IMG/VR virus record: IMGVR_UViG_2929656146_000003
Coordinates: 14,215-78,214 of that record
Source of the DNA: a virus
Taxonomy: Duplodnaviria > Caudoviricetes
Strand: one strand, 5' to 3'
Length of the DNA: 64,000 nucleotides
Shown: in pieces, positions 13,735 to 48,076 of the stretch
Layout of the letters: each line of letters opens with the position of its first letter
Position numbering within the stretch: position 1 is the first letter of the stretch
The notes under the pieces: model-generated
Seen by the model: only the letters and a program-made list of their open reading frames with translations
What the model was told of the DNA's origin: nothing
Databases searched by the model: none
Program-made: the position numbers and the translations under genes

Positions 13735-15294
13735 TCAGTGGGTGTAGGTGTGGCTGGTCGCGGTCGGCACAGCACGTTTGGTGGTGTCGAGGAACCGGGT
13801 GACCGCGCTTCCGACGGCGTCGACGAGGTCGTCGTGCGGGGCCCGGGGGAACCCCACCATCTGCTCCTCCAGGTCGCGCAGGGTCCGGCCGTGGAGGACG
13901 CGGCCCCGCTGGTAGTGGTTGAGGGCCCGCGCCGCGCGGACTGTCTTGTGCTCGGATTGGCTGACGGTCTTCACCTTGACGGGCATGTGGTGAAAGATCG
14001 CGTCCCAGGTGCCGTGACCCTGGTTCACTTCCAGCAGGATCAGCCCGACCTCCGGGTACTCGTCCAGCAGGGCCAGCACCCGTTCCCGCAGCTTCGCGCC
14101 GGGCGGGATCCGGACCGGGATCGCCGCGTGGACGGTGCAGCGGCGGGTCTGCGCGGACCAGGACACGACGGCGAGGCCGGTGTAGTCGCTGGTGGCCTTC
14201 GCGGTGACCGCGGGGTCGATGGAGAGGACCATGTGCGTGACCGGGTCGGGGCCGTCCTCGGGGTAGCGGAAGTCGTCGGCGCACCAGTAGTCACCGTCGG
14301 CGCCGAGCGGATCGTTGGCGTAGTTCTTGGCGAAGCTGCGGGTGTGTTCGATCTTCTTCAGGTAGCTCAGTGGCCACTTCGCCGGCCACATGCTGCGCTC
14401 GGTGCCGTCGTCACGGCGGATGATCGGCAGGCTGTGGTGCGTCGCGAAGCCCTCGTCGGCAATCCACTCCGCGGTCTCCACCCCTTGGCCGTGCTTGACG
14501 AGCTGGTGGACGATGCTGCCGGGCATGGTGACCGTGCCGACGAGGACCACCCTTGCGTAGACGTTGAGGGGCAGGACCGCGTCCCGCAGGGTGGTGAGCC
14601 TCTTCCGGGCCTGGTCGGGGGAGTAGGAGGACTCGTCCGGTTCGACGTCGTCGAGGAGCAGGAGGTCCGGCCTGTGATTGCGCACCTTGAGGCCCAGGCT
14701 GGAGGAGTCCATGCCGCGGGCTGCGAAGGCGAACCCGTTCTCGGCGATGTACATGCGCTGCGTGTCGGCGACGTTCCCGCCGTTCGGCCGCTTTGCGGGG
14801 TTGCACAGTTCCGGGAAGTCGGACCGCAGCTTGTCGTTGTTGTCGATCTCCTGCTTGAACGTCGACAGGTGGGCCTCAGCCTGCGCCGCGCTGGCGGAGA
14901 ACGCCGCGGTGAACTTCACCCAGCCATGCGCCGCGGCCCACATCGGCAGCAGCAGAAACCACCACGTGCTCTTGCCGGTCTCGCGGGGTGCCACGTAGGC
15001 GTCCCGCTGCTCCGCCGGCATCGTCGGCGTGCGGATCCAGCGACGGCCGGCGCGGCACCAGTCCAGGTGCGCGTCGCTGAAGGTGACCTGGCCCTCGGCG
15101 TCCTTGATGTGGTCGCGCAGGTAGACGATCGCGAACAGGGCGGGGTCAAGCCGGGTGAGCGCGCGCCGGCCTTCCGGGTCGTCGAGCATCCGCGCGTCGG
15201 GCACGGTGCGGGCCAGGTACCGGTGCAGGTCGAAGCCCTCGCCGGTGACCCCGGCGAGGTAGGAGTCGACGACACCGGCCGCCAGGTCCGTCAC
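13735..15294 (-). CDS. Terminase large subunit
   Basis: Walker A 'APRETGKST', Walker B 'LLLLDDVE', nuclease 'SIDPA...SDYT...HDDLVDA'. Confidence 0.95.
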   Translation of the reverse strand: MTDLAAGVVDSYLAGVTGEGFDLHRYLARTVPDARMLDDPEGRRALTRLDPALFAIVYLRDHIKDAEGQVTFSDAHLDWCRAGRRWIRTPTMPAEQRDAYVAPRETGKSTWWFLLLPMWAAAHGWVKFTAAFSASAAQAEAHLSTFKQEIDNNDKLRSDFPELCNPAKRPNGGNVADTQRMYIAENGFAFAARGMDSSSLGLKVRNHRPDLLLLDDVEPDESSYSPDQARKRLTTLRDAVLPLNVYARVVLVGTVTMPGSIVHQLVKHGQGVETAEWIADEGFATHHSLPIIRRDDGTERSMWPAKWPLSYLKKIEHTRSFAKNYANDPLGADGDYWCADDFRYPEDGPDPVTHMVLSIDPAVTAKATSDYTGLAVVSWSAQTRRCTVHAAIPVRIPPGAKLRERVLALLDEYPEVGLILLEVNQGHGTWDAIFHHMPVKVKTVSQSEHKTVRAARALNHYQRGRVLHGRTLRDLEEQMVGFPRAPHDDLVDAVGSAVTRFLDTTKRAVPTATSHTYTH

Positions 15295-20813: not shown

Positions 20814-21107
20814 TCAGGCGTCGGGCGCCCACTCGGGCTGGTAGTTGGGGTGGTCGCGGTACGGCATGGCGAGGATAGCCAGTGTCTGGTTCGCGAGCCA
20901 GTGACCGTGGTCCTCGTAGGCGAGGACGTGGTTGCAGGTTGCGATGATGCGCCGCTTGGCGTCGACCTCGGCCAGCACCCGTAGGTGGTGACCTGGGGCG
21001 CCCGGTTCGTTGTACTCGGAGTACCCGTTGTCCCCCCACGGGCCCTGTGCGAACTGCTCGTCCTCGTCGAGGCGGGCGTTCATGAACGCCACGAGGTCAG
21101 CACTCAC
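20814..21107 (-). CDS. DUF6221-like protein
   Basis: 'DLVAFMNARLDEDE...RVLAEVDAKRRII...LAMPYRDHPNYQPEWAP'. Confidence 0.8.
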   Translation of the reverse strand: MSADLVAFMNARLDEDEQFAQGPWGDNGYSEYNEPGAPGHHLRVLAEVDAKRRIIATCNHVLAYEDHGHWLANQTLAILAMPYRDHPNYQPEWAPDA

Positions 21108-21944
21108 AGCCCCAGCTCCCCATACGGGTAGTCGTACGGGCGAAGCGCCTCGGTGAGCGCCTCGTGCAGAGTGGGCTGTGGCAGGGTAGCGCTGATCTCG
21201 GGGTTGAGTTCCTTGACGATGGCTTCGCCGAGGGACCTCAGCAGGTCGGCCTTCATCCACTCCTGGTACTGCTGGTCCTGATGCCACAGCTCAACGCTGG
21301 CGAAGGTCTGTGCCTGAAGCCGCTTGCCGTTGACCTCGACGACGGTCCTGAGGGCCACCATGTCGGGCGGGGTCGTACTTCCGTCAGTCATCGGGGGAAC
21401 ACGTCCGGCAGCACTGGAGCGAACTGCAGGCTGGCCTGCCGGAGTGGCTCCATGGCGGCGGCCAGGTCACGCAGGGCCTTCGCGGCGACGAGTTGCAGCG
21501 GCGTGGGATTGGGTGCGGGGTGGTGGTGTCGGCCGAGTTGGCGGAGGGTCCGGTCGGTGCTGGGGTACGGGCGGTGGCTCATGCGGTCACCGTCGCTACT
21601 CCATGGCAAGGTCCACACATGGGCACGTCTACCCGGCCTGTTATCTCCGAGTACCTCGGCACCGTCAGGCCCGGTACCGCCTGTCCGGTGCAGGTCACGT
21701 TGGGCTGATCGCGGTGGAGGTCGCACAGGCAGTGGCATCCGCCGATTCCGGAGAGTGCCTCGTTCTCACGCCGGAGGCGGTCGAGTTCCTCGGGGTGCTG
21801 TTCGAAGTACTCGATGGTGGGGCGGAGGGTTTCGTACGCCTGGGCGATAGTTCCGACCGCGTGATTGAGAACGGGGCGGAGCGCCTGGCTTACGGCGTTG
21901 ATCGCGGCTCGGAGTTCCTGAGGGAAGGGCTGCTCACTGCTCAT
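21104..21944 (-). CDS. Three coupled hypothetical genes (21104-21391, 21388-21582, 21579-21944)
   Basis: Chained ATGA/GTGA overlaps. Confidence 0.6.
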
Positions 21945-22003
21945 GGGTTCATCCTCTCGTGGGAGGCCCGCCCGTGGTGAGAACTGGGCGAGCCCCTCTT
22001 CTA

Positions 22004-23974
22004 TCACTCCTCGGCACCGGGCAGGTAGAACTGCTCGGCCTTGCCGGCCTTGCGTGACTGCACACCGTGGGTCTTCCACAGGTCGAGGGCCCGGCGGACG
22101 GTGTCCCGGCTACCGAACGGCCCCTCTTCGACCAGGCGTTCCTTCGTGGCGTAGCCCTCCTCCTCGCATAGCTGAAGGAAGACCCGGTACAGGTCGATCC
22201 ACTCGTCTCGACCGACCATGGTGCCGTCCGGGTAGACGGGCGGCGGCGGACCAACCGGCCGGGCCGGGGCGGGCTTGAACAGGGACGCCTGAACTCCGCC
22301 CCCGACGGGCCGGGTCTGCGCCGGGGCGGCGGCGTGCAGGTGCGCCACATCTGCGGCGATGTCCAGGTCCGTCACATACTCGGCCCGGCACTTCGGCGGA
22401 TCCGTCAACGGCATCTCCGGGCAGCCGATGTAGAACTCGCCTGGTCGGGTGAGCTTCTCCGGCGTGAAGCCGTTGCTCTTGCAGCCCTGCCCGAAGATGA
22501 ACACGCTGTGCCCGGCCTCGCCGACCCTGGTCGAGATGCGGTTCGCGTAGTTACCGCGGGCGTCGCTGGACCCGCCGAACACCTTCGCGGACGGCTGCTG
22601 CGTCGCGGACAGGAACATGATCCCCATCGAGCGGGCGATCGCCAGGGCGGACTCGTATGTCGTCGCGATGTCCTGCTCGGGCGGGCCCATCTCCGGGTCC
22701 AGCTTGCGGAGCTCCGCCTCCTGCTTGCGGAGTTCCTCGTCCTGCCGGATCAGCTCGGCGAGTTCGTCGGTCACGACGATCCATGCCGGGCCGTGGACGC
22801 CGGGGATCCACTTGCGGACGGGCTCGCGGCCGGCAGCCATCTCCCTCTTCGACAGCTCCTCCAGGTAGGCGCCACGGCGGTCGCACTCCGCGCGGATGTA
22901 CTGCAGGAGCTCGCGGGCCTCCTCGGCGGTTCGGGCGAGCCTGCGCATCTTCGGCTCCCACGGGCCGAGTTCCACGGCGCCAGGCTTCATATCGATGCCG
23001 AACAGCTCGACGTGCTTCTTCTTCAGCAGCTTCTTGATGATCAGGTTGATGATGCCGGACTTGCCCCAGTCCGATGCGCCGGCGACGAGGGTGTGCCGGT
23101 ACATGACGGTCAGCAGGACGGGCTGCCCGTACTCGGTCCAGCCGAGCCGGATCGGCTTGGTGATGTCGTCGGAGTCGTCGTCGGCGTACGGGATGACGCG
23201 GTCGTGGAACGGGCCGCCCGGGCCCCGGGGCGTCGACTGCTCTTCGGTGCTGCTGGACGCGGAGGCCTTCAGGGCGGCCTGGCCCCCCTGGTGCAGCTGG
23301 ACGTCGACGGAGGCGTTGGCCTTCGCCGTGGCGCTGGCTTTCCCCGGCAGCGCCTTGTGGTCCTTGCGGTGCTGGATCAGCCACGGCACGTACACCGCGT
23401 ACGCGGCGCCGGTGGTGACCGCTGCGGCGGTGAGGGAGACACCGCCAGGGCCGGTGCCGACAGCGGTGGCGACGTCGGCGAAGGTGAGCGTCAGGCCGGC
23501 TCCGGCCCGTGTCAGCATCTCGTCCTTCTTCTCTACCCCGGCGGCGGTGACCGCTGCACCCAGGACGGCAAGGCCGGCGTACGCGGCGGTTCCCCAGCCT
23601 CCGACACCGGCGAGGTACTGCCACCAGCCGAGACCGGTGACGGCGCCGACGGTCATGGCGGGGGCGAGCTCGACGCGGTACCGGATGACGAGGGCGCTGG
23701 CCTGGTTGGCGACGGCCACGCAGGCGGCGAGGAACCGCCTGGGCAGGGCTGGCCGGGTCTTCTGGACGACGTAGACGGAGCCCTCGACCACCGCCGTCGC
23801 GGGTGACGACGAGGCCCCAGTGGACTCGTCGTTTCCTGTTTCCGCAGGTCGCGGCTCTGCGATGGTCGTCGTCATCGGCATCGTCGGCGTGATCGTCGCG
23901 TTGTCCTGCCGCTGGGGTCGGGGGAGGAAGGGGAGGATCTGAGCCCCGTCGGCCGGGGGCAGGTACTGGGCCAC
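22004..23974 (-). CDS. traB: TraB-like FtsK/SpoIIIE conjugative DNA translocase
   Basis: N-terminal TM helices, Walker A 'AGASDWGKS', 'IDMKPGAVEL', Walker B 'VVTDELAEL', 'ARSMGI...ATQQP', short C-terminal wHTH-like domain; GAGGAG RBS before GTG. Confidence 0.85.
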   Translation of the reverse strand: MAQYLPPADGAQILPFLPRPQRQDNATITPTMPMTTTIAEPRPAETGNDESTGASSSPATAVVEGSVYVVQKTRPALPRRFLAACVAVANQASALVIRYRVELAPAMTVGAVTGLGWWQYLAGVGGWGTAAYAGLAVLGAAVTAAGVEKKDEMLTRAGAGLTLTFADVATAVGTGPGGVSLTAAAVTTGAAYAVYVPWLIQHRKDHKALPGKASATAKANASVDVQLHQGGQAALKASASSSTEEQSTPRGPGGPFHDRVIPYADDDSDDITKPIRLGWTEYGQPVLLTVMYRHTLVAGASDWGKSGIINLIIKKLLKKKHVELFGIDMKPGAVELGPWEPKMRRLARTAEEARELLQYIRAECDRRGAYLEELSKREMAAGREPVRKWIPGVHGPAWIVVTDELAELIRQDEELRKQEAELRKLDPEMGPPEQDIATTYESALAIARSMGIMFLSATQQPSAKVFGGSSDARGNYANRISTRVGEAGHSVFIFGQGCKSNGFTPEKLTRPGEFYIGCPEMPLTDPPKCRAEYVTDLDIAADVAHLHAAAPAQTRPVGGGVQASLFKPAPARPVGPPPPVYPDGTMVGRDEWIDLYRVFLQLCEEEGYATKERLVEEGPFGSRDTVRRALDLWKTHGVQSRKAGKAEQFYLPGAEE

Positions 23975-24067
23975 GAGGGGCTCCTCTCGGTACTGGGATG
24001 GGGTGGTCTGAGTGCTCGCGGCGGCCGCCCAACCGCAGGGGTTGGGCGTCACCGGCAGGCCGTCAGA

Positions 24068-25435
24068 TCAGCCGTCCGTCCCGGTGATCGGCCGGACGTT
24101 GTCGGACCCGAGCGCGGCAAGCTCGGGGTGCTCTCGCTCGATCTCCAGCCGGCGAGCGTTCGCGAACTGGCGGGACTTGGGGAGCTTCGCGGCCTTCAGG
24201 GCGGCCACCATCTCGGACTCCAGGGGGCGCCTTCCAAGGTCGGCGTAGAGCGCCTTGATGGCGTCTCGTGCGGCGTCCCGTGGCGCCGCCGTGGGGCGCC
24301 CTGAAGTGGTGGGCCGGGGCGCCTTCGTGGCGCTACGAGGGCGGGCGACGGGGCGCTTCTGGGGCGCTTCAGAAGCGGCATTGGTGGCGCTCTGACGGGC
24401 GCTGTCATAGCGCTCTCGGGGCGCCATAGCGTCGACTGCCGTGGCGCTCTGAGGGCGCTTCACAAGGTCGACGGTGGCGTCATGCGTGGCGCTCCCGTGG
24501 CGCCCCGAAGCCGCTGCCTGAGGCGCTTCCGTGGCGGGTGCGAGGGCGCTTTCGATGGCGCCCCGAATCACTGGTTGGGGCGCCACGATGCCGGACGCCA
24601 TGGCGCTTTCGGGGCGCTCTACGTAGATAGGCGGGAGCGCTTCCGTGGCGCCTTCATGGCAGTCGACGGTGGCGTCCTGAGGCGCCTCGATGGCGGCCTG
24701 TCCGTAGGCCTCGTGCAGCGCTGCGCCGATCGGCTTGCCAAGCTTGGCGAGCCTGATGGCGAGCTGCTCGGGCTTGGTGGCCTGCCTCTTCCATCCGCGT
24801 CCGTAGCGGATCCTGAGCGTGGTGCGGAAGACCTTCGACTCCTGTTCCATCAGGATCACTTCGGTGTAGGAGCGGATGTTCCACATGCGCATGCGGCGCC
24901 ACACGCGGTAGGTCGGCCACGGGGCGAGGAACCAGCGGGGCAGCGGCGGGTTCTCGTAGTAGGCGCCGCTGCTGATCTTCGCCATCCGGCCCACGGCGTG
25001 CCTGCCAGCCTCGACGATGAGGACGAACAGGATGGGCATGGTGGCGTGCATGCCTACGGCGATTTCGTCACCCCAGGAAGCGGCGACGTTGAAGGCGATC
25101 GTGGCGCCGGTGAGACCCCAGGCCGCGTAGCGCAGTAGGGGGAACGGCATGCGGAAGAAGGTGAGGAGGAGGTCAAGGGCAAGGAGGGTACCGATGCCGA
25201 CGTCGACGCCGAGGGGGAAGACGCGGGCGAAGTCGCCGAAGTCCTTCTTGATGGCGAGCCTGACAACGGCGTTGTAGGAGCCTGCGAAGCCGATGCCAGC
25301 GATGGAGATGGCGCCGGCAACGATGGCGCCGATGGTGGCTTTCTGCGGCTTGGTGAGCTCGCGCTTGGTGCGGGCGTCGAGGCCCAGCGCGGGAGTGGTG
25401 GTGAGCTCAGTCTCGGTGTTTGCGATCGGGTTCAC
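24068..25435 (-). CDS. DUF2637 membrane protein (Spd-like spread protein)
   Basis: Four TM segments 'GFAGSYNAV...FPLGVDVGI...TIAFNVAA...MHATMPILF..VEAGRH', low-complexity linker, C-terminal HTH-like end. Confidence 0.8.
   Translation of the reverse strand: MNPIANTETELTTTPALGLDARTKRELTKPQKATIGAIVAGAISIAGIGFAGSYNAVVRLAIKKDFGDFARVFPLGVDVGIGTLLALDLLLTFFRMPFPLLRYAAWGLTGATIAFNVAASWGDEIAVGMHATMPILFVLIVEAGRHAVGRMAKISSGAYYENPPLPRWFLAPWPTYRVWRRMRMWNIRSYTEVILMEQESKVFRTTLRIRYGRGWKRQATKPEQLAIRLAKLGKPIGAALHEAYGQAAIEAPQDATVDCHEGATEALPPIYVERPESAMASGIVAPQPVIRGAIESALAPATEAPQAAASGRHGSATHDATVDLVKRPQSATAVDAMAPRERYDSARQSATNAASEAPQKRPVARPRSATKAPRPTTSGRPTAAPRDAARDAIKALYADLGRRPLESEMVAALKAAKLPKSRQFANARRLEIEREHPELAALGSDNVRPITGTDG
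24224..24690 (+). repeat. Dense oriented array of GGCGCY motifs (candidate clt/TraB recognition locus)
   Basis: About 22 GGCGC(C/T) copies counted by eye in about 460 bp, often 10-12 bp apart, falling in more than one reading frame of the DUF2637 ORF. Confidence 0.6.
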
Positions 25436-25454
25436 GTCTGGGCTCCTTCCTGGG

Positions 25455-25790
25455 TTAGCGAGTGGTCGGTGAGTGGTTGGGGGCGATGTGGTGGGCGCTG
25501 GTGGTGAGTACCCACAGTGCTGCGGTGGCGAGCGCGCGGAGTGTGGCGGCGAGGGTAAGGAGGCTGCCGGCCGCGATCGCGCGGAGGGTGTGGTGGTGGC
25601 CGGCGATGAGCTGCGGAAGGTCGAGGCGCAGGGCGGTGCCCGCGAGGGCGAGCACCGCGTACTGGGCGAGGATCGCGGTGGTGACTGCGGCGAGGGCGGG
25701 GGCGGGGAGCAGGGTGGCGGCGAGCACCGCGAGCGCTAGGGCGGTGGTGGTGAGGGCCTGCTGCTCGGCCGGGGCGGCGGTGCGGGCCAC
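25455..25790 (-). CDS. Hydrophobic membrane protein (Spd-like)
   Basis: 111 aa Ala/Leu-rich; GAGAGGAG RBS; in transfer operon. Confidence 0.6.
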   Translation of the reverse strand: MARTAAPAEQQALTTTALALAVLAATLLPAPALAAVTTAILAQYAVLALAGTALRLDLPQLIAGHHHTLRAIAAGSLLTLAATLRALATAALWVLTTSAHHIAPNHSPTTR

Positions 25791-25836
25791 GACGGTCTCC
25801 TCTCTGGGTTAGGCGGGTGGGTCCGGGGCTCGGCTC

Positions 25837-26067
25837 CTACTTCGGGGTGACGACGAGGTCGAGCACGTTCCCGGGCACCTTCAGCAGGGTGGCGAGGTCG
25901 GCAGCGAGCGAGCCCAGGGTGTGCGGGATGTCGACCCTGGTGACGATCTGCTTCTGGTTGATGCCGGTGCCTGCGCTGTCGCGCAGCTCGGTGATGAGGG
26001 TGACGGCGTAGTTGCCCGGCGGAACCTGGGTACCGGCTCCGTTGCGGCTGATCGACATGGTGGTCAT
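25837..26067 (-). CDS. Hypothetical protein
   Basis: 76 aa; GAAAGGA RBS. Confidence 0.6.
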   Translation of the reverse strand: MTTMSISRNGAGTQVPPGNYAVTLITELRDSAGTGINQKQIVTRVDIPHTLGSLAADLATLLKVPGNVLDLVVTPK

Positions 26068-26082
26068 GGCGTGGTCGTCCTT

Positions 26083-26616
26083 TCAGGTGGTGGCTGCGGT
26101 GCGCAGCAGGTTGTGGATGTCGGCCTTCGTGCGGCCGGGCTCGTCGTTCCAGGTGTCGACCGGGATCGGGTGGCCGGCGCGGCCGAGGGCGTTGCCGATG
26201 AGGAGGCGGGCTTGCCAGGCGGTGGCGGGGGTGCCGTATCCGTGGGCGAGGACCTGGAGGTGGGCGCCGAGGACGCACACGGCGCCGGTGGCGTCCCAGA
26301 GGCCGCCCTGGGTCCAGCCGTGCTGGGTGATGTAGCGGTCCATCAGCTGCAGGTGCTCTCTCGCGGTGACTTGGATGGTGGGAGCCGGGCGACGGAGGAT
26401 CCGGTCGGTGAGGGTGCGGGCGGGTTGGGGGTGGCCGGCCCACCAGGGCGGGGTGGTGCTGCCGTGGGCCGGGATGTGCACCGTTGGGGCGGTGCGCAGC
26501 GGGGTGGGTCCGCCGGTGGGGATGACGGTTTTGAGGTAGGCCTCGATCTCGGCGACCAGGAGGGGGCCGTACAGGTCCACGTCCAGGTCGAGCGGGGTGG
26601 TGATGGTGGCGGGCAT
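26083..26616 (-). CDS. DUF6197-like protein
   Basis: 'HGWTQG...GAVCVLGA...WNDEPGRT..DI..LL' motif. Confidence 0.65.
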   Translation of the reverse strand: MPATITTPLDLDVDLYGPLLVAEIEAYLKTVIPTGGPTPLRTAPTVHIPAHGSTTPPWWAGHPQPARTLTDRILRRPAPTIQVTAREHLQLMDRYITQHGWTQGGLWDATGAVCVLGAHLQVLAHGYGTPATAWQARLLIGNALGRAGHPIPVDTWNDEPGRTKADIHNLLRTAATT

Positions 26617-26704
26617 CTTGGGGGTTCTCCTCTCCTGGTCAGCGAGCGTGCGATGGGTGCGGTCCGTGCGAGTGATGCGATACCGTGCACGGCCCGCCGG
26701 GAGG

Positions 26705-26920
26705 TCAGGCCCGGTGCCGGCCGCATCGCGACAGTGCGGCCGAGCCGTAGCCGACGCCGGAGGTGACGACGCACAGGCAGGCATCGCAGACGGCTCCGGG
26801 GATGGGCAGGCTCTCGGTGGCGTGCGCGACCCGCATCGGCTGGCCGCAGCAGGTGAGGTTGTCGTAGGCCTCGGGGGTGAGTGATGCGCCGTCGGCGAGC
26901 TGCGTGAGTGGGGTGGCTAT
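26705..26920 (-). pseudogene. Cys-rich small ORF beginning with ATA (mutated or non-canonical start)
   Basis: GGAGG RBS, in-frame TGA, GCC, then ATA opening 71 codons with 'CCGQPM...CDAC'. Confidence 0.5.
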
Positions 26921-26923
26921 GGC

Positions 26924-29900
26924 TCAGTCCTCCAGGTCGGTGGGGTACTCGCCGAGGCGGGCGGTCTCGGCGAGCGAGCGGTGTTCTTGTGCCTGTGCGA
27001 GGCACTCGGTCCGGCCGGGGCCGTCGGCCTGGGCGGCGAGAAGCTTCAGGGCCGCGGCTTCCCTCAGGTGGTGGGCCACTGCGGCGGCGCGTTTCATGTC
27101 GATGTCCCCCTGCTCCGGTGCGGTGTGTGTGAGGGTGCGGGCCTTGGCGTGGGCTAGAGCGCGGCGCGCAGGTCTGCGAGGGCCTGGTCGGCGGCCCGCT
27201 GGCTGGGGGTCAGGATGCTGCGCGCGGCGCCGTGGATCGTGGCGGGCAGCAGGGCGCGGATGTCGCGCTCGTTGACGCCGGCTGCGATCGCGGCCTTGTA
27301 GGCCTCGCAGGCGTCGGCGACGGACTGGCTGTAGGTGGCGTCGGCCGCGGCGTCGGCCCGGTAGGCGGACTCGCTGCGGGCGACAGCGTCGACAACGGTT
27401 CGGATGAGGTGCTGCTGGCTGGCCATGGTTCCTCCTGGGAGTGAGGCGGCGGGCTGGGCGCGGGGCTCTCCTGGTCGGCGTTCAGGCCGCGCGGAGCAGC
27501 TCGCGGGTGGCCGGGTACATGTCGAGCTGCGCGGCCAGGTAGCGCTGGGCGACGTCGTCCTGGATGCCGGCGCTGGCGGCTGCGACGCGGTCGTGGAGGT
27601 CGGAGCTGAACCGGGCGGAGAGCTCCTCGTCGTGGCGGTGCTGGTCGGCGCCGGTCCACTGCGGGGTGTCGGTGAGCGGGCCGTGAGCGGACCAGATCTG
27701 CCAGGACGGGGTCTGGCCGGCCATCAGCTGGCCCGTGTAGACGCCCCACTTGGCTTTGCGGTCGAACTGGTAGTCGCCGTGGACGAGGCCCCCGCTTCCG
27801 GAGCTTCCGATCGGGGCGATTGTGTAGTAGGTGACGCCGAGCTTGGCGACGGTGTTGACCCACTGGTCGTGTTCGCGGCGGGCCTCGGCGGCGTAGCGCT
27901 GGCTGCGGGCACTGTCGATGGCGCGGTTGAGGAGCCTCATACTGAGGTTGCCCTTCTTGCTCGTTGGCGGGTGGTGGGGTGTCCGGGGCGGCCGGCTGTG
28001 CTTGGCGGCTGATGGCGGCCGCCCCGGGGGCGGGGCTAGGAAACGTGCTCGGAGGCGTCGGACTTGGCTTGGGCGACTGCGGCATACCAGTTGGCCTGGT
28101 CGTTGAACAGACGCTTGCCGGGATCGCTGGCGTTGTTCCAAGTGCAGGTGCAGAACGCCTCGATGGTGTTGCCGTCGGGGCAGGCTGTCTCGGTGACCAC
28201 CGCGGTGTGCTGACCGTTGCGGAACGCGGCGATGTCACCGCGGCCTGGGTAGATTTCGTGGGGAAGCACTGCTTTGGCCTCCTTGCGGCCAGGTCTGGGC
28301 TGGGTTGCGTGGTCAGGACCAGTGCCAGACCGAGCGGGTGCGGGCCGCCTCTGCGGCGGCTGCGCCGAGTTCGTAGCAGGCCTGCTGCCATGTCGGTGAG
28401 GCGAACGGGGTGAGGGCCTTGAACGCGGCGCCCATGCGCGCGGCCTGGTCGGGCTGGATGTCGAAGGTGTCTCCGCTGCCCCGGTTGAACAGTGGGCTGA
28501 TGGCGGCCCAGTCGCTTCGTGGGGCGATCTGCTTCAGGTACTCGCCGAGTTCGGTGTGCGCACTGTAGGAGCGGGTCCCGCCGGTCTGGTTGTGGTCCCA
28601 GGACCAGCCCATCAGTTCTTCCGAAGCTGTTCGGGCCGGTAGGTGCGCTCTCCGAGTACCGCCTCGACGAGTCGGTTGTCGATGCCCTTCACAGAGACCA
28701 GCTGGCCGACGTCATCGGTCTGGACCTGGACGACGGTGCCGGTGCGGCCGAGGGTCTTGGGGTTCTGCCCGTCGGTGTTGATCACGGTGACGCTGTCACC
28801 CTCACGAACGGCCATCAGGCGGCAGCCCGGTAGACGTCGACGTAGCCAGCGGGCAGGTGGAGCTCCTGCGCGGCGAACGCGAGGACCTCCGCGTCGGTGA
28901 CCGCACCGTACGTGTGGACGGGCTTGAAGACCGGGCCGGCGAACTCGGGGTGCCGGACGATCAGGCGGGCGGGCTCGCCCAGGATCCGGTCGGTGAAGTT
29001 CTTCATGATGTCCCTTCAGAATCAGACGTAGAGGGCGTAGGCGATGCCGCTGAGGATGAGGATCACGAGGATCACTACGGGGATGAGAGCAGCCAGGCGG
29101 TGGGCCTCCTCCCTTGCGCTGTCCTGAGGGGTGATGAGGTATCGGAGGTAGCTGCCATCGCCGTCCATCAGGTTGCCTTTCACGCGGCGGCCGGGTAGCG
29201 GATGGTGTCCGCGCCGAGCCGGTAGAGGAGGGTCGTGGCCAGAGCCTCGGCCTCGTGCTCGGCAGCGTCGATGACGGCGTCGCGTTCGGCGGGGGTGGCG
29301 TCGGGGCGCAGTCGGCCGAGGGCGATCTGCATGCTGGCGATGCCGTCGCGCTGCTCCTGCAAGGTGGCCATCAGACGGTTCCTTTCAGAGTCGGGCGGCG
29401 GCCTCACGGACCGCCTGGACGGTGTCGTACGGGGAGTCCTCCAGCGCGAAGACCTCCGCGCTGGGCAGTGCGGCGAGCATGCGGGCCGCGTGGGTGACGC
29501 ATCCGTTCGCGTTGATGTACGGGTTCCACTGGACGACATGGGCCACGACCGGGCCGTCACACGGGGGTTGTGCCTGCTTGCTGTGGTTCGCGGCGGACTG
29601 GGCGGCGTCGCAGTAGGCGCTCACTCGGTGTCCTCGTCGAACGGTTCGGTGAGGATGTCGATGTACGGGGTTCCGTCTGCGGCGGTCATGAGCGACAGGA
29701 GCTCGATCAGGCCGGCGCTGTTGGGGTCGTCGATGTCGACGGGGACCGGGTCACCGTTGCCGGCCATCAGACGATGTCCAGCGGGGTGCGGACCTGGGTG
29801 GCTTCGAGGTCGGTGATCTCCTGGACCTCCGCCCGGAACTGCTGGGCCAGGGTCTCGCGCAGGCCCTTGTCCTTGGCGGCGAGGAACTGCCTTGCCGTGG

Positions 29901-30265
29901 TCCGGGCCTTCGTTTCGAGGGCGGCGATCTGCTCGTCGAGGGTCACTGCTTGTCCTCCTTCTTGATCGGGTCGATGGGCTTCCGCGGCCGCGGGATCCTG
30001 GGGATGACCGGCCGGTTGTCCCAGTCGGTCACTTCGTGGGCTGCGGGGGGAGGGGCGGGAGGGGCTGGTGGCCGTAGCCGCCGTTCGTGGAGTGGTCGCC
30101 GGCGCCGTCGGCGAAGGCACGGTCGTAGTGCATGGGGTCCTCCTTGCTGGGGGTGATGGTCCGCTGGCCGATCGGGGGAGCCCCGAACGCCGGCGAGGGG
30201 CGGGACGGCTGCGGGCCGGGTTCAATGGGGTCGAGGCCGGGCCAGCCGTTGTGCGGGTCAGGCAT
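26924..30265 (-). CDS. Chain of small hypothetical genes (26924-27097, 27154-27426, 27482-27940, 28036-28269, 28313-28612, 28612-28815, 28815-29006, 29022-29168, 29180-29371, 29385-29624, 29621-29767, 29767-29946, 29943-30032, 30029-30265)
   Basis: Tightly packed; each has an RBS or a start/stop overlap; one operon upstream of the transfer genes. Confidence 0.6.
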
Positions 30266-30492
30266 CAGGCGGCGTCCGCCAGGTCGTGCATCGCCTGGAT
30301 CTTGGCCGCGACGACCGCGCGGGGGATGCGGATGGCACCGCCGCGACCGGCCTGGCCGCGGGACCACTGCTTGCCGTGGCGGATCGCTTCGAGCTCTCCG
30401 TCCTGCACCCAGCGGTAGATGGTGGGGATGCTGACCCGGAGCGCTTTCGCGACCTCCTTGACGGTCAGGACCGGTGGACTCTCGGGCAGCAT
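30265..30492 (-). CDS. Excisionase-like (HTH_17) DNA-binding protein
   Basis: 'LTVKEVAKALRVSIPTIYRWVQDGELEAIR...IRIP'; first gene of the leftward operon. Confidence 0.85.
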   Translation of the reverse strand: MLPESPPVLTVKEVAKALRVSIPTIYRWVQDGELEAIRHGKQWSRGQAGRGGAIRIPRAVVAAKIQAMHDLADAA

Positions 30493-30538
30493 GCTGAAGC
30501 CCTCCTTCCGAGGGGTTCCTCGTTGGCTGATGGACACA

Positions 30539-30577
30539 ACTATATAGGTTCTCTTGAGAAGCTGCAATGTTCTCAGG
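30539..30577 (-). promoter_or_regulatory. Leftward promoter/operator
   Basis: Minus strand TTGCAG-N17-TATAGT; spacer contains palindrome TTCTC-NN-GAGAA. Confidence 0.75.
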
Positions 30578-30664: not shown

Positions 30665-31207
30665 ATGGCTGACGAAGGCCAGCTGGACGCGTCGGCTGCC
30701 TACCTCCGAGCACCCACCAGCGGACACCGCGATGCATGGAGCGAGCTCGCACGCGCATCTGGGCGGCAGGGTGGTCAACGGCTGATTGAAGTGGGTGAAG
30801 TCGAGGCGCCAGAAGGCGTCGCCTGCGCGCTCCGTTTGCCCGTAGGGGCGCTCGTCTCGATCCGGCGCAGGGTGATCACGCTTGATGGCCGTGCAGTGGA
30901 AGTCGCAAGTTCCTACTACCCGGCCGACATAGCGGCGGGCACTCCGCTGGCGAGACCCGCACGCATTCGAGGCGGGGCTGTGGCGGTGTTGGCAGCCCTC
31001 GGGCACCAACCAGTGGTTGCTCACGAGGAAGTGGCGGCCAGGCCAGTGTCAGCAGCTGAGCTGGAGATCCTTGACGCGAACCCGTCTGACTGGGTCCTCG
31101 ATCTCCTGCGAATTGCTCTGGATGTGACTGGGCGCCCTGTCGAGGTCTCTCTGATGACCATGCTGGCCGTTGGCCGGAAGCTCCACTACACCGTCGAGAT
31201 CGGCTGA
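30665..31207 (+). CDS. Stand-alone UTRA-domain protein (no HTH)
   Basis: 'RRRVITLDGRAVEVASSYYP.DIA.GT.L..P.RIRGG...EEVAAR' parallels the UTRA domain of the next gene; AGGAGG RBS; no N-terminal wHTH. Confidence 0.8.
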   Translation: MADEGQLDASAAYLRAPTSGHRDAWSELARASGRQGGQRLIEVGEVEAPEGVACALRLPVGALVSIRRRVITLDGRAVEVASSYYPADIAAGTPLARPARIRGGAVAVLAALGHQPVVAHEEVAARPVSAAELEILDANPSDWVLDLLRIALDVTGRPVEVSLMTMLAVGRKLHYTVEIG

Positions 31208-31211
31208 GATC

Positions 31212-32015
31212 ATGAAAGAACACGACATCAGTACCACCAGTGAGGCACCGGACAAGCCGACTCTTGAGCAGGAAAAGGGCGCCTGGCCGCAACACGAACT
31301 CCTGGCGAGCTACCTGCGCGACGGCATCCTGTCCGGCGACTTCCCTGCCGGCAGCCTGCTGCCGTCGACGAGGCTCCTGCGAGAGAAGTTCGGGGTTGCA
31401 CCCCAGACCATCAAGCACGCAAATGACCAACTGGCCAGCGAGGGCCTTGTCCGCAGCCACCGAGGCAAGGGCATCATCGTGCTTGATCGCCGCCCACAGA
31501 CCGTGGTGCCTGCGGCGACCAAAAGGCCGGCAAACCCGGGTGACCCGTATCGCTGGATCACCGAAGCATCGAAGAGTGGGCTGCAGGGAGCGAGTGTCCT
31601 TCTCGACGTAGACGAGGTCGTTCCGCCCAAAGACGTTGCGCGGGCGCTCGGACTTGGGGCGAGTGGCGTGGCCCTTCGGCGCGAGCAAGTCCTCACGCTC
31701 GACGGCGAGCCGGCCGAATACGTGAGGGCGTACTACCCTGTGGATATCGCGCGAGGCACTGAGATCGCCGTTCGCAAGCGGATCAGGGGCGGGACGCCGC
31801 GGGTCCTTCAGGACCTTGGGTATCCGCCGCTCAGGTGTGTGGACACTGTTTCGGCGCGTGTTCCGACGCCGGACGAGGTCAAGGCCCTGGGTACGCCCAC
31901 CAAGGTTCCAGTCCTCAGGACACTGCGCGTGGTTCACAGCGTTGACGACAGAGTGGTGGAGGTCGCTGTGATGGCGAAGGCAGGCCACCTCTACGAGCTG
32001 CAGTACGACTTCTAG
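31212..32015 (+). CDS. GntR/HutC-family repressor with UTRA domain (KorSA/TraR-like)
   Basis: 'LRDGILSGDFPAGSLLPS...FGVAPQTI..A...LASEGLV....GKG' GntR HTH plus UTRA. Confidence 0.9.
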   Translation: MKEHDISTTSEAPDKPTLEQEKGAWPQHELLASYLRDGILSGDFPAGSLLPSTRLLREKFGVAPQTIKHANDQLASEGLVRSHRGKGIIVLDRRPQTVVPAATKRPANPGDPYRWITEASKSGLQGASVLLDVDEVVPPKDVARALGLGASGVALRREQVLTLDGEPAEYVRAYYPVDIARGTEIAVRKRIRGGTPRVLQDLGYPPLRCVDTVSARVPTPDEVKALGTPTKVPVLRTLRVVHSVDDRVVEVAVMAKAGHLYELQYDF

Positions 32016-32078: not shown

Positions 32079-32465
32079 CTAGCCGAGTTCTCCGAGGAGC
32101 CCGAATGAGCGGGCCAGGACTGTGTTCAGCTCGGCCATCTGGGGAGGGCGCAGGCGACCAGCGAAGCGTTCGAGGCGGGACTGGTCGATGGTCATCACCT
32201 GAAATCCCAGGATGTCACCGGCATCGGGGAGGGGGTCACCAGCCTGAAGGGTCACCGTGATGGGGGAGGTTTCGCGAACCCTGGTTGTCATCGCCGCGAC
32301 GGTCACCGTAGGCATACGGCTATTGAACGAGTCCAGCGAGATCACGACGGCGGGCCGATGGCCGGCCTGCTCTGAACCGCGTGCTGGGTCGAAGTCCACC
32401 CAGTAGATGTCTCCCCGCTGAGGGGACGGCGGCCGCCTGAGAGGCGGAGGGCTCGGTACGGGCAC
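32079..32465 (-). CDS. PemK/MazF-family endoribonuclease toxin
   Basis: 'RGDIYWVDFDPARGSEQAGHRPAVVIS...QVMTIDQSRL'. Confidence 0.92.
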   Translation of the reverse strand: MPVPSPPPLRRPPSPQRGDIYWVDFDPARGSEQAGHRPAVVISLDSFNSRMPTVTVAAMTTRVRETSPITVTLQAGDPLPDAGDILGFQVMTIDQSRLERFAGRLRPPQMAELNTVLARSFGLLGELG

Positions 32466-47119: not shown

Positions 47120-48076
47120 TCAGGCAGCGGCGAGCGCAGGCTGGCGGGCGGTGATGCCGGTGGCTTCGGCGATCAGCACCGTGGCGAGGGGCGGGGGGAC
47201 GGCGTTGCCGATGGCGAGGTACTGCTGTCCGGCGGTGCCGTGCCACTGGAGGCCGGGGCGGAAGCCCTGCAGCGCGGCACAGTCGGCAACCGTGGGCCGC
47301 CAGCCGCGGGGGCCGGGGACGCACAGGGCCGGGTCGCGGTCGGCGGTGTTGCGCATCGCCCGTCGGCTGCCGTTGCCGAACGGCTCGGCCCCGCCGGTGG
47401 AGGTGCCGCCGCCGGTGACGGTGGGGGACGGGCGCCGGGTGTATCCCCAGCCGACGGTGTCGCGCATGGCGGTGAGCGGCAGCTGTCCGGGCCCGCCGTG
47501 CGTCGTGGCGGGAAGGGCCACGGGCCGGGCCTGGGAGGCGATGAGGACGGCGCGCTTGCGGTGCTGGCCGAGCCCGTACGAGGCGGCGTCCACGATGCCG
47601 GTGGCGGTCCGGTAGCCCCAGTCCTGCAGCAGGTCGGCGTACAGCTCCCACAGGGGCAGGACGGCGGGTACCTGTTCCATGAGGATCCACTCCGGGCGGA
47701 GGTCGTGGTACCAGCGCATGGGTTCGGCGGTGAGGGCGGAGCGTTCGTCGCGGCAGGCGGCGCGCAGGGCCTGGCGGGTGTCGTGGCCGCGGGCGTAGTC
47801 GCGGATCGCTCCGGCTACGTACGGGGCGTCGTGGGTGCCGGCGCCGTTACCGGACTTGGAGAAGCTGGGGCAGGGCGGCGACATGATCACCCCGGTGGTG
47901 CCGCGGTGGTCGGCGGTGTCGAGGGTGGTGATGTCGGCGTGGATGGTGGCGTGTCCGGCTGCGGTGCGGGTGGTGCAGGCGGAGGCCGAGTAGTCGATGC
48001 CGGTCTCGGTGAGGCCGAGCACCTGGGCGCCTTCGGCCCAGCCGATGCCGGCGAAGCCTCCGAGGATGGTGGTCAC
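47120..48076 (-). CDS. DNA (cytosine-5) methyltransferase
   Basis: Motif I 'FAGIG', IV 'SPPCPSFS', VI 'EQV', VIII 'QHRKR', X 'GNAVPP'. Confidence 0.9.
   Translation of the reverse strand: MTTILGGFAGIGWAEGAQVLGLTETGIDYSASACTTRTAAGHATIHADITTLDTADHRGTTGVIMSPPCPSFSKSGNGAGTHDAPYVAGAIRDYARGHDTRQALRAACRDERSALTAEPMRWYHDLRPEWILMEQVPAVLPLWELYADLLQDWGYRTATGIVDAASYGLGQHRKRAVLIASQARPVALPATTHGGPGQLPLTAMRDTVGWGYTRRPSPTVTGGGTSTGGAEPFGNGSRRAMRNTADRDPALCVPGPRGWRPTVADCAALQGFRPGLQWHGTAGQQYLAIGNAVPPPLATVLIAEATGITARQPALAAA

Follow-up and report, generated by a model that had tools for sequence, protein, structure and literature searches.

A phased array of GGCGC(T/C) repeats inside a prophage DUF2637 gene: a putative binding site for the C-terminal domain of the encoded membrane protein

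Introduction

Which protein reads a cluster of short repeats that lies inside one gene and close to the start of the next? The question is raised by a 64,000-nucleotide stretch of viral DNA (Duplodnaviria; Caudoviricetes; positions 14,215 to 78,214 of the IMG/VR record IMGVR_UViG_2929656146_000003), hereafter called the window, in which a gene for a DUF2637 membrane protein (P0001) precedes a gene for an FtsK/SpoIIIE-like protein, TraB (P0002). The DUF2637 gene is crowded with copies of GGCGC(T/C). A preliminary description, made from the sequence of the window, took them for a cis-acting transfer site (clt) which is overprinted on a disordered linker and recognized by the winged helix-turn-helix (wHTH) of TraB. 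The part of this proposal that stands is the oriented, apparently protein-binding cis site in the DNA of the linker; the part that is not supported is its recognition by the TraB wHTH. The analysis presented here supports the view that the array is a cis-acting protein-binding site. On balance, it is probably a centromere- or clt-like site, putatively bound by the C-terminal domain of P0001 itself, which would tether the DNA of the element to the membrane.

The clt loci and TraB recognition sequence (TRS) repeats of Streptomyces plasmids (pSVH1, pJV1, pIJ101 and pWTY27) are described as short direct repeats of 5–9 bp beside an FtsK-like tra gene, which are thought to nucleate a higher-order protein–DNA complex (PMC3583192, PMC4447253); the clt of pWTY27 overlaps 16 bp of traA (PMC3583192). 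The array is similar in that it is a cluster of short (about 8-bp) direct repeats close to traB, with 22 exact and 11 near-exact copies.

An oriented array with a period near one helical turn

The plus strand carries 22 exact copies of GGCGC(T/C) between 24226 and 24686 (12 GGCGCT and 10 GGCGCC), and the opposite strand a single GGCGCT, at 24249. The earlier estimate of about 22 copies in about 460 bp just upstream of traB, with GGCGCT almost always on the plus strand, is borne out by these counts. From the remainder of the window, 1.85 copies would be expected in a segment of this length. Sliding 470-bp windows contain 1.98 copies on average (standard deviation 2.06), and the second-best of them in the 64 kb contains 10.

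The copies share a common phase: the phase coherence R is 0.966 at a period of 11.36–11.38 bp, as compared to a mean best R of 0.46 and a maximum of 0.63 in 1000 sets of random positions. The start-to-start spacings are 11, 12, 22, 23 or 34 bp, except for one of 13 and one of 56 bp. When positions 24220–24700 are laid out as a lattice of 42 slots with a step of 11.37 bp, 22 slots contain an exact GGCGC, 11 a copy with one mismatch and 9 a sequence with at least two mismatches. The slots with at most one mismatch number 33 of 42 in phase, versus 0–10 in shifted registers, and their occupancy tends to a 34-bp rhythm in which two filled slots are followed by a weak one (lag-3 autocorrelation of the exact sites, 0.38). 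Read on the coding strand, the word extends to R-N-R-GCGCC-M-C. The array ends about 170 bp upstream of the traB open reading frame (ORF).

The array ranks first among the GGCGC clusters of the 9.14-Mb genome that contains the window. Of the 21 clusters of this genome with at least 13 copies, no other combines a phase near 11 bp with a distribution over three frames, and the prophage contains no second cluster. At C3:259172-259700, the same genome has a perfect tandem array with a 9-bp period, in which 17 GGCGC share one frame; this ordinary coding tandem repeat was used as a contrast to the three-frame array.

Three GTCGAC sites (24430-24436, 24467-24481 and 24662-24676) all lie in weak slots of the array. 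Two are part of GTCGACGGTGGCGTC, translated as DATVD. The linkers of many homologues retain the peptide (G/D)ATVDL(V/T)KRP, which may be a short protein-level motif inside an otherwise free linker.

Constraint at the level of the DNA

Relative to the minus-strand ORF 24068-25435, the copies are distributed over the three frames (7, 9 and 6). The motif is translated as EAPQ, VAPQ or MAPR in one frame, as ESAM, QSAT or GSAT in another, and as VERP, VKRP or SGRP in the third; over the whole array, the translations can be summarized as EAP/VAP/MAP, SA(T/M/L)/GA(T/I) and (E/K/G)RP. The preliminary description had noticed SAT/EAP in one frame and KRP/GRP in another. Resampling or permuting synonymous codons gives on average 6.1 and 7.5 copies (maxima 14 and 16), shuffling the order of the codons gives 4.3 copies (maximum 11), and none of the 5000 trials of each type reaches 22. 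The spread over three frames, the result of the recoding and a period of 11.37 bp, which is not a multiple of three, together show that the constraint on the array is at the nucleotide level, as had been suspected. Amino-acid repeats as its cause are rejected on the basis of the frame spread and the recoding.

The reading frame itself is real, since close homologues (60–80% identity) keep it through the array and have the same conserved C-terminal domain. The array coincides with the predicted disordered linker between the helical membrane domain and the small C-terminal domain.

An array of this kind might have no function, and simply result from replication slippage, tolerated in the linker, or from amino-acid repeats. 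DUF2637 linkers are of low complexity and many relatives have peptide repeats which are locked in one frame and share codons (24 of the 27 GAAGC copies in one frame, and 19 of 19 for AGCAG); common descent of such repeats would defeat the test based on synonymous permutation. This explanation is nevertheless very improbable, considering that the 22 copies are distributed over three frames with a period that is not a multiple of three, that the core is conserved while the flanks vary, and that the array persists in relatives whose linkers differ, as described below.

TraB as a candidate reader

The array could be a clt/TRS locus which the FtsK-like TraB encoded downstream reads directly, through its winged helix. 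It is indeed made of oriented direct repeats of about 8 bp adjoining traB, and three of the seven loci with such an array encode a TraB relative directly downstream. The clt loci of Streptomyces plasmids are direct repeats of 7–9 bp bound by the wHTH of the cognate TraB (PMC4447253, PMC4170104, PMC3583192). The preliminary description raised the question whether the motif in the linker changes along with the wHTH of TraB; when this was checked, it did not.

Public contigs yielded two relatives of TraB, L003 (75% identity) and L004 (53%; the same DNA was also met as the viral contig L005). The genes upstream of these traB genes give weak DUF2637 matches and their products are 24–26% identical to P0001. 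At the position of the window array they have another word, TGATGCGC/GCGCATCA, which occurs in either orientation and without phase. In L003, GATGCG/CGCATC is present 17 times in 563 nucleotides, versus 9 times in the remaining 9.5 kb, and L004 has 18 copies of the TGATGCGC/GCGCATCA word versus 8 in the remainder. The recognition helix of TraB, SRDTVRRA(L/T), is identical in five related elements: the window, L186 and L187, which have RGCGCC, and L003 and L004, which have TGATGCGC. Over the last 75 alignment columns, TraB of the window is as close to L003 (68% identity) and L004 (65%), which have a different array, as to L186 (65%) and L187 (53%), which have the same one. The overall identity of TraB to that of the window is 58% in L186 and 39% in L187, and both have RGCGCC arrays of the same orientation and phase. 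The five TraB-bearing loci share no TRS-like cluster near traB, in that no 8-mer is common to them and only generic GC-rich 6- and 7-mers recur.

Four loci (L188, L189, L141 and L156) still carry the array word without a gene of the TraB family PF01580: no such gene is present within 500 kb of the array in L188, in the 368-kb contig of L189, or in the proviruses of L141 (72% complete) and L156 (100% complete). Similarly, five phage records from the DUF2637 word clusters described below were tested, and four of them, which are rated 100% complete and have analogous arrays, are devoid of any PF01580 gene.

The same TraB helix is thus found with different words, and the array is found without TraB, which means that word and helix do not covary and that TraB is dispensable for the array. 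Covariation of the word with the TraB wHTH is rejected, and sequence comparison does not support this wHTH as the reader; direct reading by TraB is quite unlikely. The array also departs from the known clt loci, which consist of 3–9 repeats, lie mostly in non-coding DNA and have the TraB wHTH as their reader (PMC4447253, PMC4170104, PMC3583192). In contrast, the array has about 33 phased sites wholly inside another gene and in three frames, its word does not follow the wHTH of TraB, and it exists without the translocase.

The phage and plasmid collections contain distant TraB relatives only. Those of the plasmid collection are all in records H3-H7, five "plasmids" of about 130 kb, and the sole match in the phage collection is Streptomyces phage Gilgamesh, which has the same size (129 kb). 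H3-H7 may be phage-plasmids.

RGCGCC arrays and the DUF2637 C-terminal domain

The 70-residue C-terminus of P0001 was searched in 401 Streptomycetaceae genomes, including that of the window, and four other genomes matched. No protein segment other than the C-terminal domain is shared by the seven RGCGCC loci. The identity of this domain to that of the window is 81% in L186, 75% in L187, 57% in L188, 51% in L189, and 43% in both L141 and L156.

The L186 ORF contains 21 GCGCC, and 11 of the 13 AGCGCC of the locus. The array of L186 has a period of 11.30 bp (R 0.95, n = 18), that of L187 a period of 11.49 bp (R 0.91, n = 8), that of L188 a period of 11.34 bp (R 0.99, n = 5) and that of L189 a period of 11.56 bp (R 0.84, n = 11); each of these values is at or above the 99.9th percentile of random-position sets matched for n. 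The more distant L141 and L156 have RGCGCCCCG 8 and 7 times, in pairs 10–11 bp apart, with a period of 10.96 bp in L156 (R 0.91, n = 5). In all the arrays, RGCGCC is on the coding strand.

The word, its orientation and a period of 11.3–11.6 bp therefore persist where the C-terminal domains are 51–81% identical and the linkers differ, which also argues against an array devoid of function. With the membrane domain of the window as query, tblastn does not detect those of L186 and L187, which have diverged too far, even if the L186 domain still matches PF10935. When the DNA of the window is aligned with that of L186, 88 of the 105 core positions are identical (84%), compared to 176 of 335 outside the cores (53%), a contrast that is overstated because the aligner favors the pairing of cores. 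The peptides that are the signature of the three-frame array occur 5.3 times per 100 linker residues in 50 proteins with the domain and 1.2 times in 103 DUF2637 proteins without it, although relatives are not independent. L003 shares with the window TraB and, at 40–86% identity, five other neighboring genes, but its DUF2637 gene has another C-terminal domain and another word; on this common backbone the DUF2637 gene has been swapped naturally, and the array changed along with it. The motif follows the C-terminal domain of the DUF2637 protein itself.

Another trans factor, from the phage or the host, could also bind the array, which could be a packaging or replication site. The window encodes a C5 cytosine methylase and several helix-turn-helix (HTH) proteins elsewhere, and the core of the array fits the degenerate palindrome RGCGCY, which we take to be the HaeII site. 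The comparison of the array-bearing loci covered about 10 kb around each relative, which leaves room for a more distant factor; within this distance, the DUF2637 gene is the only one common to all of them. A host factor is difficult to reconcile with words that differ between elements of the same host genus, as is any other factor with an array that is unique in the genome and in the prophage, and the gene of the large terminase is 9 kb away from the array. Overall, another trans factor, or a packaging or replication site, is unlikely.

Fold of the C-terminal domain

The model of the C-terminal domain, obtained from a 43-row alignment, is a three-helix bundle whose core has a predicted local distance difference test (pLDDT) score of about 89. 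The helices of the 85-residue construct that was modeled are predicted at residues 15–30, 36–45 and 52–65, and the third-helix residues S51, A55, R59 and E63 are invariant in the alignment. An exhaustive structural comparison returned mostly winged-helix/HTH chains, with Z scores of 5–6.5, which are common by chance for small helical domains; the nearest folds listed are Z-alpha, ROK/Mlc, ScpB, DriD/BrxR, MecI, Lrp/AsnC and IclR. The C-terminal domains of other DUF2637 clusters give several sub-threshold HTH matches. The predicted fold is consistent with DNA binding, but is not a proof of it.

A possible membrane tether and its relation to known systems

If P0001 reads the array with its C-terminal domain, the DNA of the element would be tethered to the membrane, since this domain is the tail of a membrane protein. 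An N-in/C-in topology, predicted from the positive-inside rule, would place the linker and the C-terminal domain in the cytoplasm. An oligomeric membrane protein could then deliver many C-terminal domains, arranged head-to-tail on successive direct repeats; the bound repeats would often be pairs 11 bp apart, recurring every 34 bp. With a spacing slightly above one helical turn, the proteins would wind gently around the DNA, and the resulting nucleoprotein filament would tie the DNA of the element to the membrane. When TraB is encoded next door, it could receive the DNA from the complex and move it between hyphal compartments. In elements with TraB, the array could act by proxy as a locus for spreading or transfer; in those without TraB, it could be a site of tethering or segregation. 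The segment consisting of the linker and the domain would be a swappable specificity cassette.

The spread protein SpdB2 of pSVH1 is described, in the material available, as an oligomeric protein with four transmembrane segments, encoded beside traB, which binds double-stranded DNA and TraB. P0001 is likewise a multi-pass membrane protein encoded beside traB. Unlike the proposed reader, SpdB2 is reported to bind DNA non-specifically, and that material does not mention a cognate site. The identification of DUF2637 with SpdB of pIJ101 was also considered, but has no Pfam support: SpdB has no PF10935 match at E ≤ 1.

In the ParR-parC (R1/pSK41) and TubR-tubC partition systems, direct repeats of about 10–12 bp, roughly one helical turn apart, lie beside the gene of the adaptor. 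The adaptors are small DNA-binding proteins which cooperatively coat the repeats into a helical segrosome. These centromeres occupy intergenic DNA, and the partner of the adaptor is an actin- or tubulin-like NTPase. The array resembles these iteron centromeres in that its direct repeats are about one helical turn apart (11.37 bp, R 0.97). It differs from them in being within a gene, in that a membrane protein would provide the adaptor, as its tail, and in the lack of a partner: no ParA, ParM or TubZ Pfam family was detected in the 72 window ORFs that were scanned, nor in 10 further ORFs. The binding site of a segregation protein can also lie within its own coding sequence, as is the case for parS inside parB/spo0J; there, the site is a single 16-bp palindrome and ParB is soluble, whereas the array has about 33 phased direct repeats, distributed over three frames. 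Finally, BldC of Streptomyces is a small wHTH protein which forms head-to-tail oligomers on variable numbers of direct repeats, resulting in extended protein–DNA filaments; this shows that a lone wHTH can polymerize head-to-tail on direct repeats (PMC5859096). In contrast to the C-terminal domain of P0001, BldC is described there as a free 68-residue regulator of promoters, which recognizes AT-rich 9-bp units (PMC5859096).

Several observations weigh against the reading of the array by the C-terminal domain. For this domain, Foldseek returns nothing at E ≤ 0.001 against the PDB, no Pfam HTH family is above threshold, and the fold matches are as modest as stated above. L127, which belongs distantly to the domain cluster and differs in its third helix, has only one GCGCC; L188 has only five copies; L141 lacks an array-wide 11-bp phase; and L122, whose domain is of the L003 type, has only 2 GATGCG. 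The array and the domain are adjacent on the DNA, so that their association is in part linkage and shared descent, and the alignment of the window with L186 is biased towards pairing core with core. In several other clusters the enriched words are largely peptide repeats locked in one frame, which means that not every enrichment is a DNA site.

The strict orientation of RGCGCC on the coding strand is a further point of this kind, because it would suit repeats that act in the mRNA, as a structured or protein-bound segment upstream of traB. The RNA also folds better than shuffled sequences (z = −4.4), but the minimum-energy structure has a negligible weight in the ensemble, the centroid is strongly different, and there is no Rfam match at E ≤ 0.1 in the region 21000-27000. 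A phase of 11.4 bp is meaningful for duplex DNA and not for single-stranded RNA, and the analogous arrays of other clusters use both orientations. Having neither an Rfam match in that region nor a well-defined fold, the RNA element was rejected; we consider it hardly probable at all.

Words in other DUF2637 genes

Whether other DUF2637 genes have arrays of their own was examined with 149 DUF2637 tails from genus-wide genomes, metagenomes and IMG/VR viral contigs, which were clustered by their last 65 residues. Scans of metagenome contigs with single proteins found nothing, and a profile scan then gave 80 loci.

Several clusters have their own word. TGAGCC is present in at least 4 copies in all 14 loci of its cluster, 49-fold over background; CGGACA marks 3 of 3 loci, CTGCCA 3 of 3, CGAACA 2 of 2 and GCAGCC 7 of 9. 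GATGCG marks the cluster whose domain is of the L003/L004 type (42–52% identity), in a graded manner: L131 has 8 copies, L121 has 7, and L122 is the low case mentioned above. Many of these words exceed the synonymous-permutation nulls (z of 5–11), a test which recent in-frame duplications can fool. The TGAGCC group (L145, L149, L138, L128 and ten more viral loci) is more telling than the frame-locked words, because the word contains the stop triplet TGA, uses each of the two frames open to it and has reverse-complement copies as well. It has 11–23 copies per gene, with local spacings of 12 and 7+8 bp.

More generally, each DUF2637 protein of actinophages and plasmids may have a centromere-like array of an element-specific 6–8-bp word, in up to three frames, in the DNA that encodes its own tether, and read it with its own C-terminal HTH. 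This would be a swappable self-recognition cassette, used to tether and move only the DNA of the element at the membrane or septum, with or without TraB. We propose this tentatively, as a possible rather than a probable extension.

A chromosomal DUF2637 paralogue is present in 167 of 167 genomes of the genus, including that of the window, and has weak, peptide-like enrichments, as have two other clusters. In the 166 other genomes (G001-G166, with for example L009-L035), the paralogue has an open frame of 510–720 amino acids. It lies about 2.5 kb from the end of a contig in many draft assemblies, and is probably a neighbor of a repeat that breaks assemblies.

Implications

No account of arrays inside DUF2637 or spdB2 genes was found in the literature that was searched; the published TRS tables (Vogelmann et al. 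2011, Sepulveda et al. 2011) lie outside this comparison and may bear on the claim. A full-text search for "DUF2637" returned only unrelated matter.

If the array is read by the C-terminal domain, then DUF2637, a family without a known role that has thousands of members in phages, plasmids and chromosomes of Streptomycetaceae, would acquire a definite function, amenable to testing. It would also suggest how the DNA of a phage or plasmid is held at the membrane in order to spread through the mycelium. The locus would be a clean case of dense overprinting, where a protein-binding array of roughly 470 bp can share its bases with an ORF because the encoded peptide is only a tether. A rule of annotation would have to be corrected, since repeats beside traB would not necessarily be clt. 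Lastly, the family would provide ready-made orthogonal pairs of protein and site (RGCGCC, TGAGCC, CGGACA, GATGCG and others).

Genomic context

The features of the window that are discussed here are listed in Table 1.

Table 1. Positions of the array, of the genes and domains around it, and of two more distant genes of the window.
Feature	Position	Strand	Basis or remarks
Phased direct-repeat array	24226..24697	-	core 5'-RGCGCCMC-3' on coding strand (GKGGCGCY on + strand)
DUF2637 membrane-protein gene, P0001, 455 aa, contains the array	24068..25435	-	PF10935, 3.5e-28; phrog_29003, 4.6e-80
N-terminal helical membrane domain (Pfam match, residues 38-192)	24860..25324	-	long helices 29-63, 69-93, 99-119, 124-155
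Predicted disordered linker, coding DNA (residues 250-381)	24293..24688	-	AlphaFold pLDDT <50, no secondary structure
C-terminal three-helix domain (residues about 385-455), proposed array reader	24071..24283	-	common to 42 proteins (including that of the window); structure model
FtsK/SpoIIIE-like TraB gene, P0002, 682 aa as longest ORF	22004..24052	-	PF01580, 8.7e-7; phrog_1358 FtsK/SpoIIIE-like, 1.2e-21
wHTH-like C-terminal end of TraB	22007..22255	-	HTH_29, E 0.0097, below cut-off; helix SRDTVRRALD
GntR/UTRA regulator (context only)	31170..32015	+	same regulator class as TraR/KorA regulators of Streptomyces transfer genes
C5 cytosine methylase	47120-48076		

The window has a high GC content (66–73%) and is part of contig C4 of the genome; the closest relatives found are Kitasatospora records. 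Most of it is occupied by prophage genes (tail tube, HK97 gp10-like, capsid, scaffold, portal, DnaB, RecT, YqaJ and the C5 methylase), to which the large terminase gene has to be added. The PF10935 match of P0001 scores 99 bits, above the gathering cut-off of 22.8. The function of phrog_29003 is given as unknown in PHROGs. The four long helices of P0001 are all within its N-terminal 155 residues, as expected of a multi-pass membrane protein, and the traB ORF begins 15 bp downstream of the stop codon of the DUF2637 gene.

In one genome (G064), the module made of the DUF2637 C-terminal domain and traB is present in three copies with identical match scores, at C1:8487177, C2:857896 and C4:38653 (L180, L184 and L185). 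They could correspond to terminal inverted repeats plus a plasmid, or to a multi-copy element.

An ORF for a PemK/MazF-like toxin (32079-32465, minus strand) and the GntR/UTRA regulator are 7–8 kb upstream of the DUF2637-traB operon, and an HTH_17 (excisionase-like) ORF is at 30265-30567. The regulator was compared to TraR of a Streptomyces transfer region (PMC4447253). The stretch between 19 and 32 kb looks like a transfer module of the plasmid or AICE (actinomycete integrative and conjugative element) type, embedded in a prophage.

The repeats downstream of traB belong to two-copy families only. About 850 bp past the 3' end of traB, inside a DUF6221 ORF, two copies of AGCGCCTCG are found 12 bp apart (21144-21164, plus strand), in the orientation opposite to that of the array; this pair could be due to chance.

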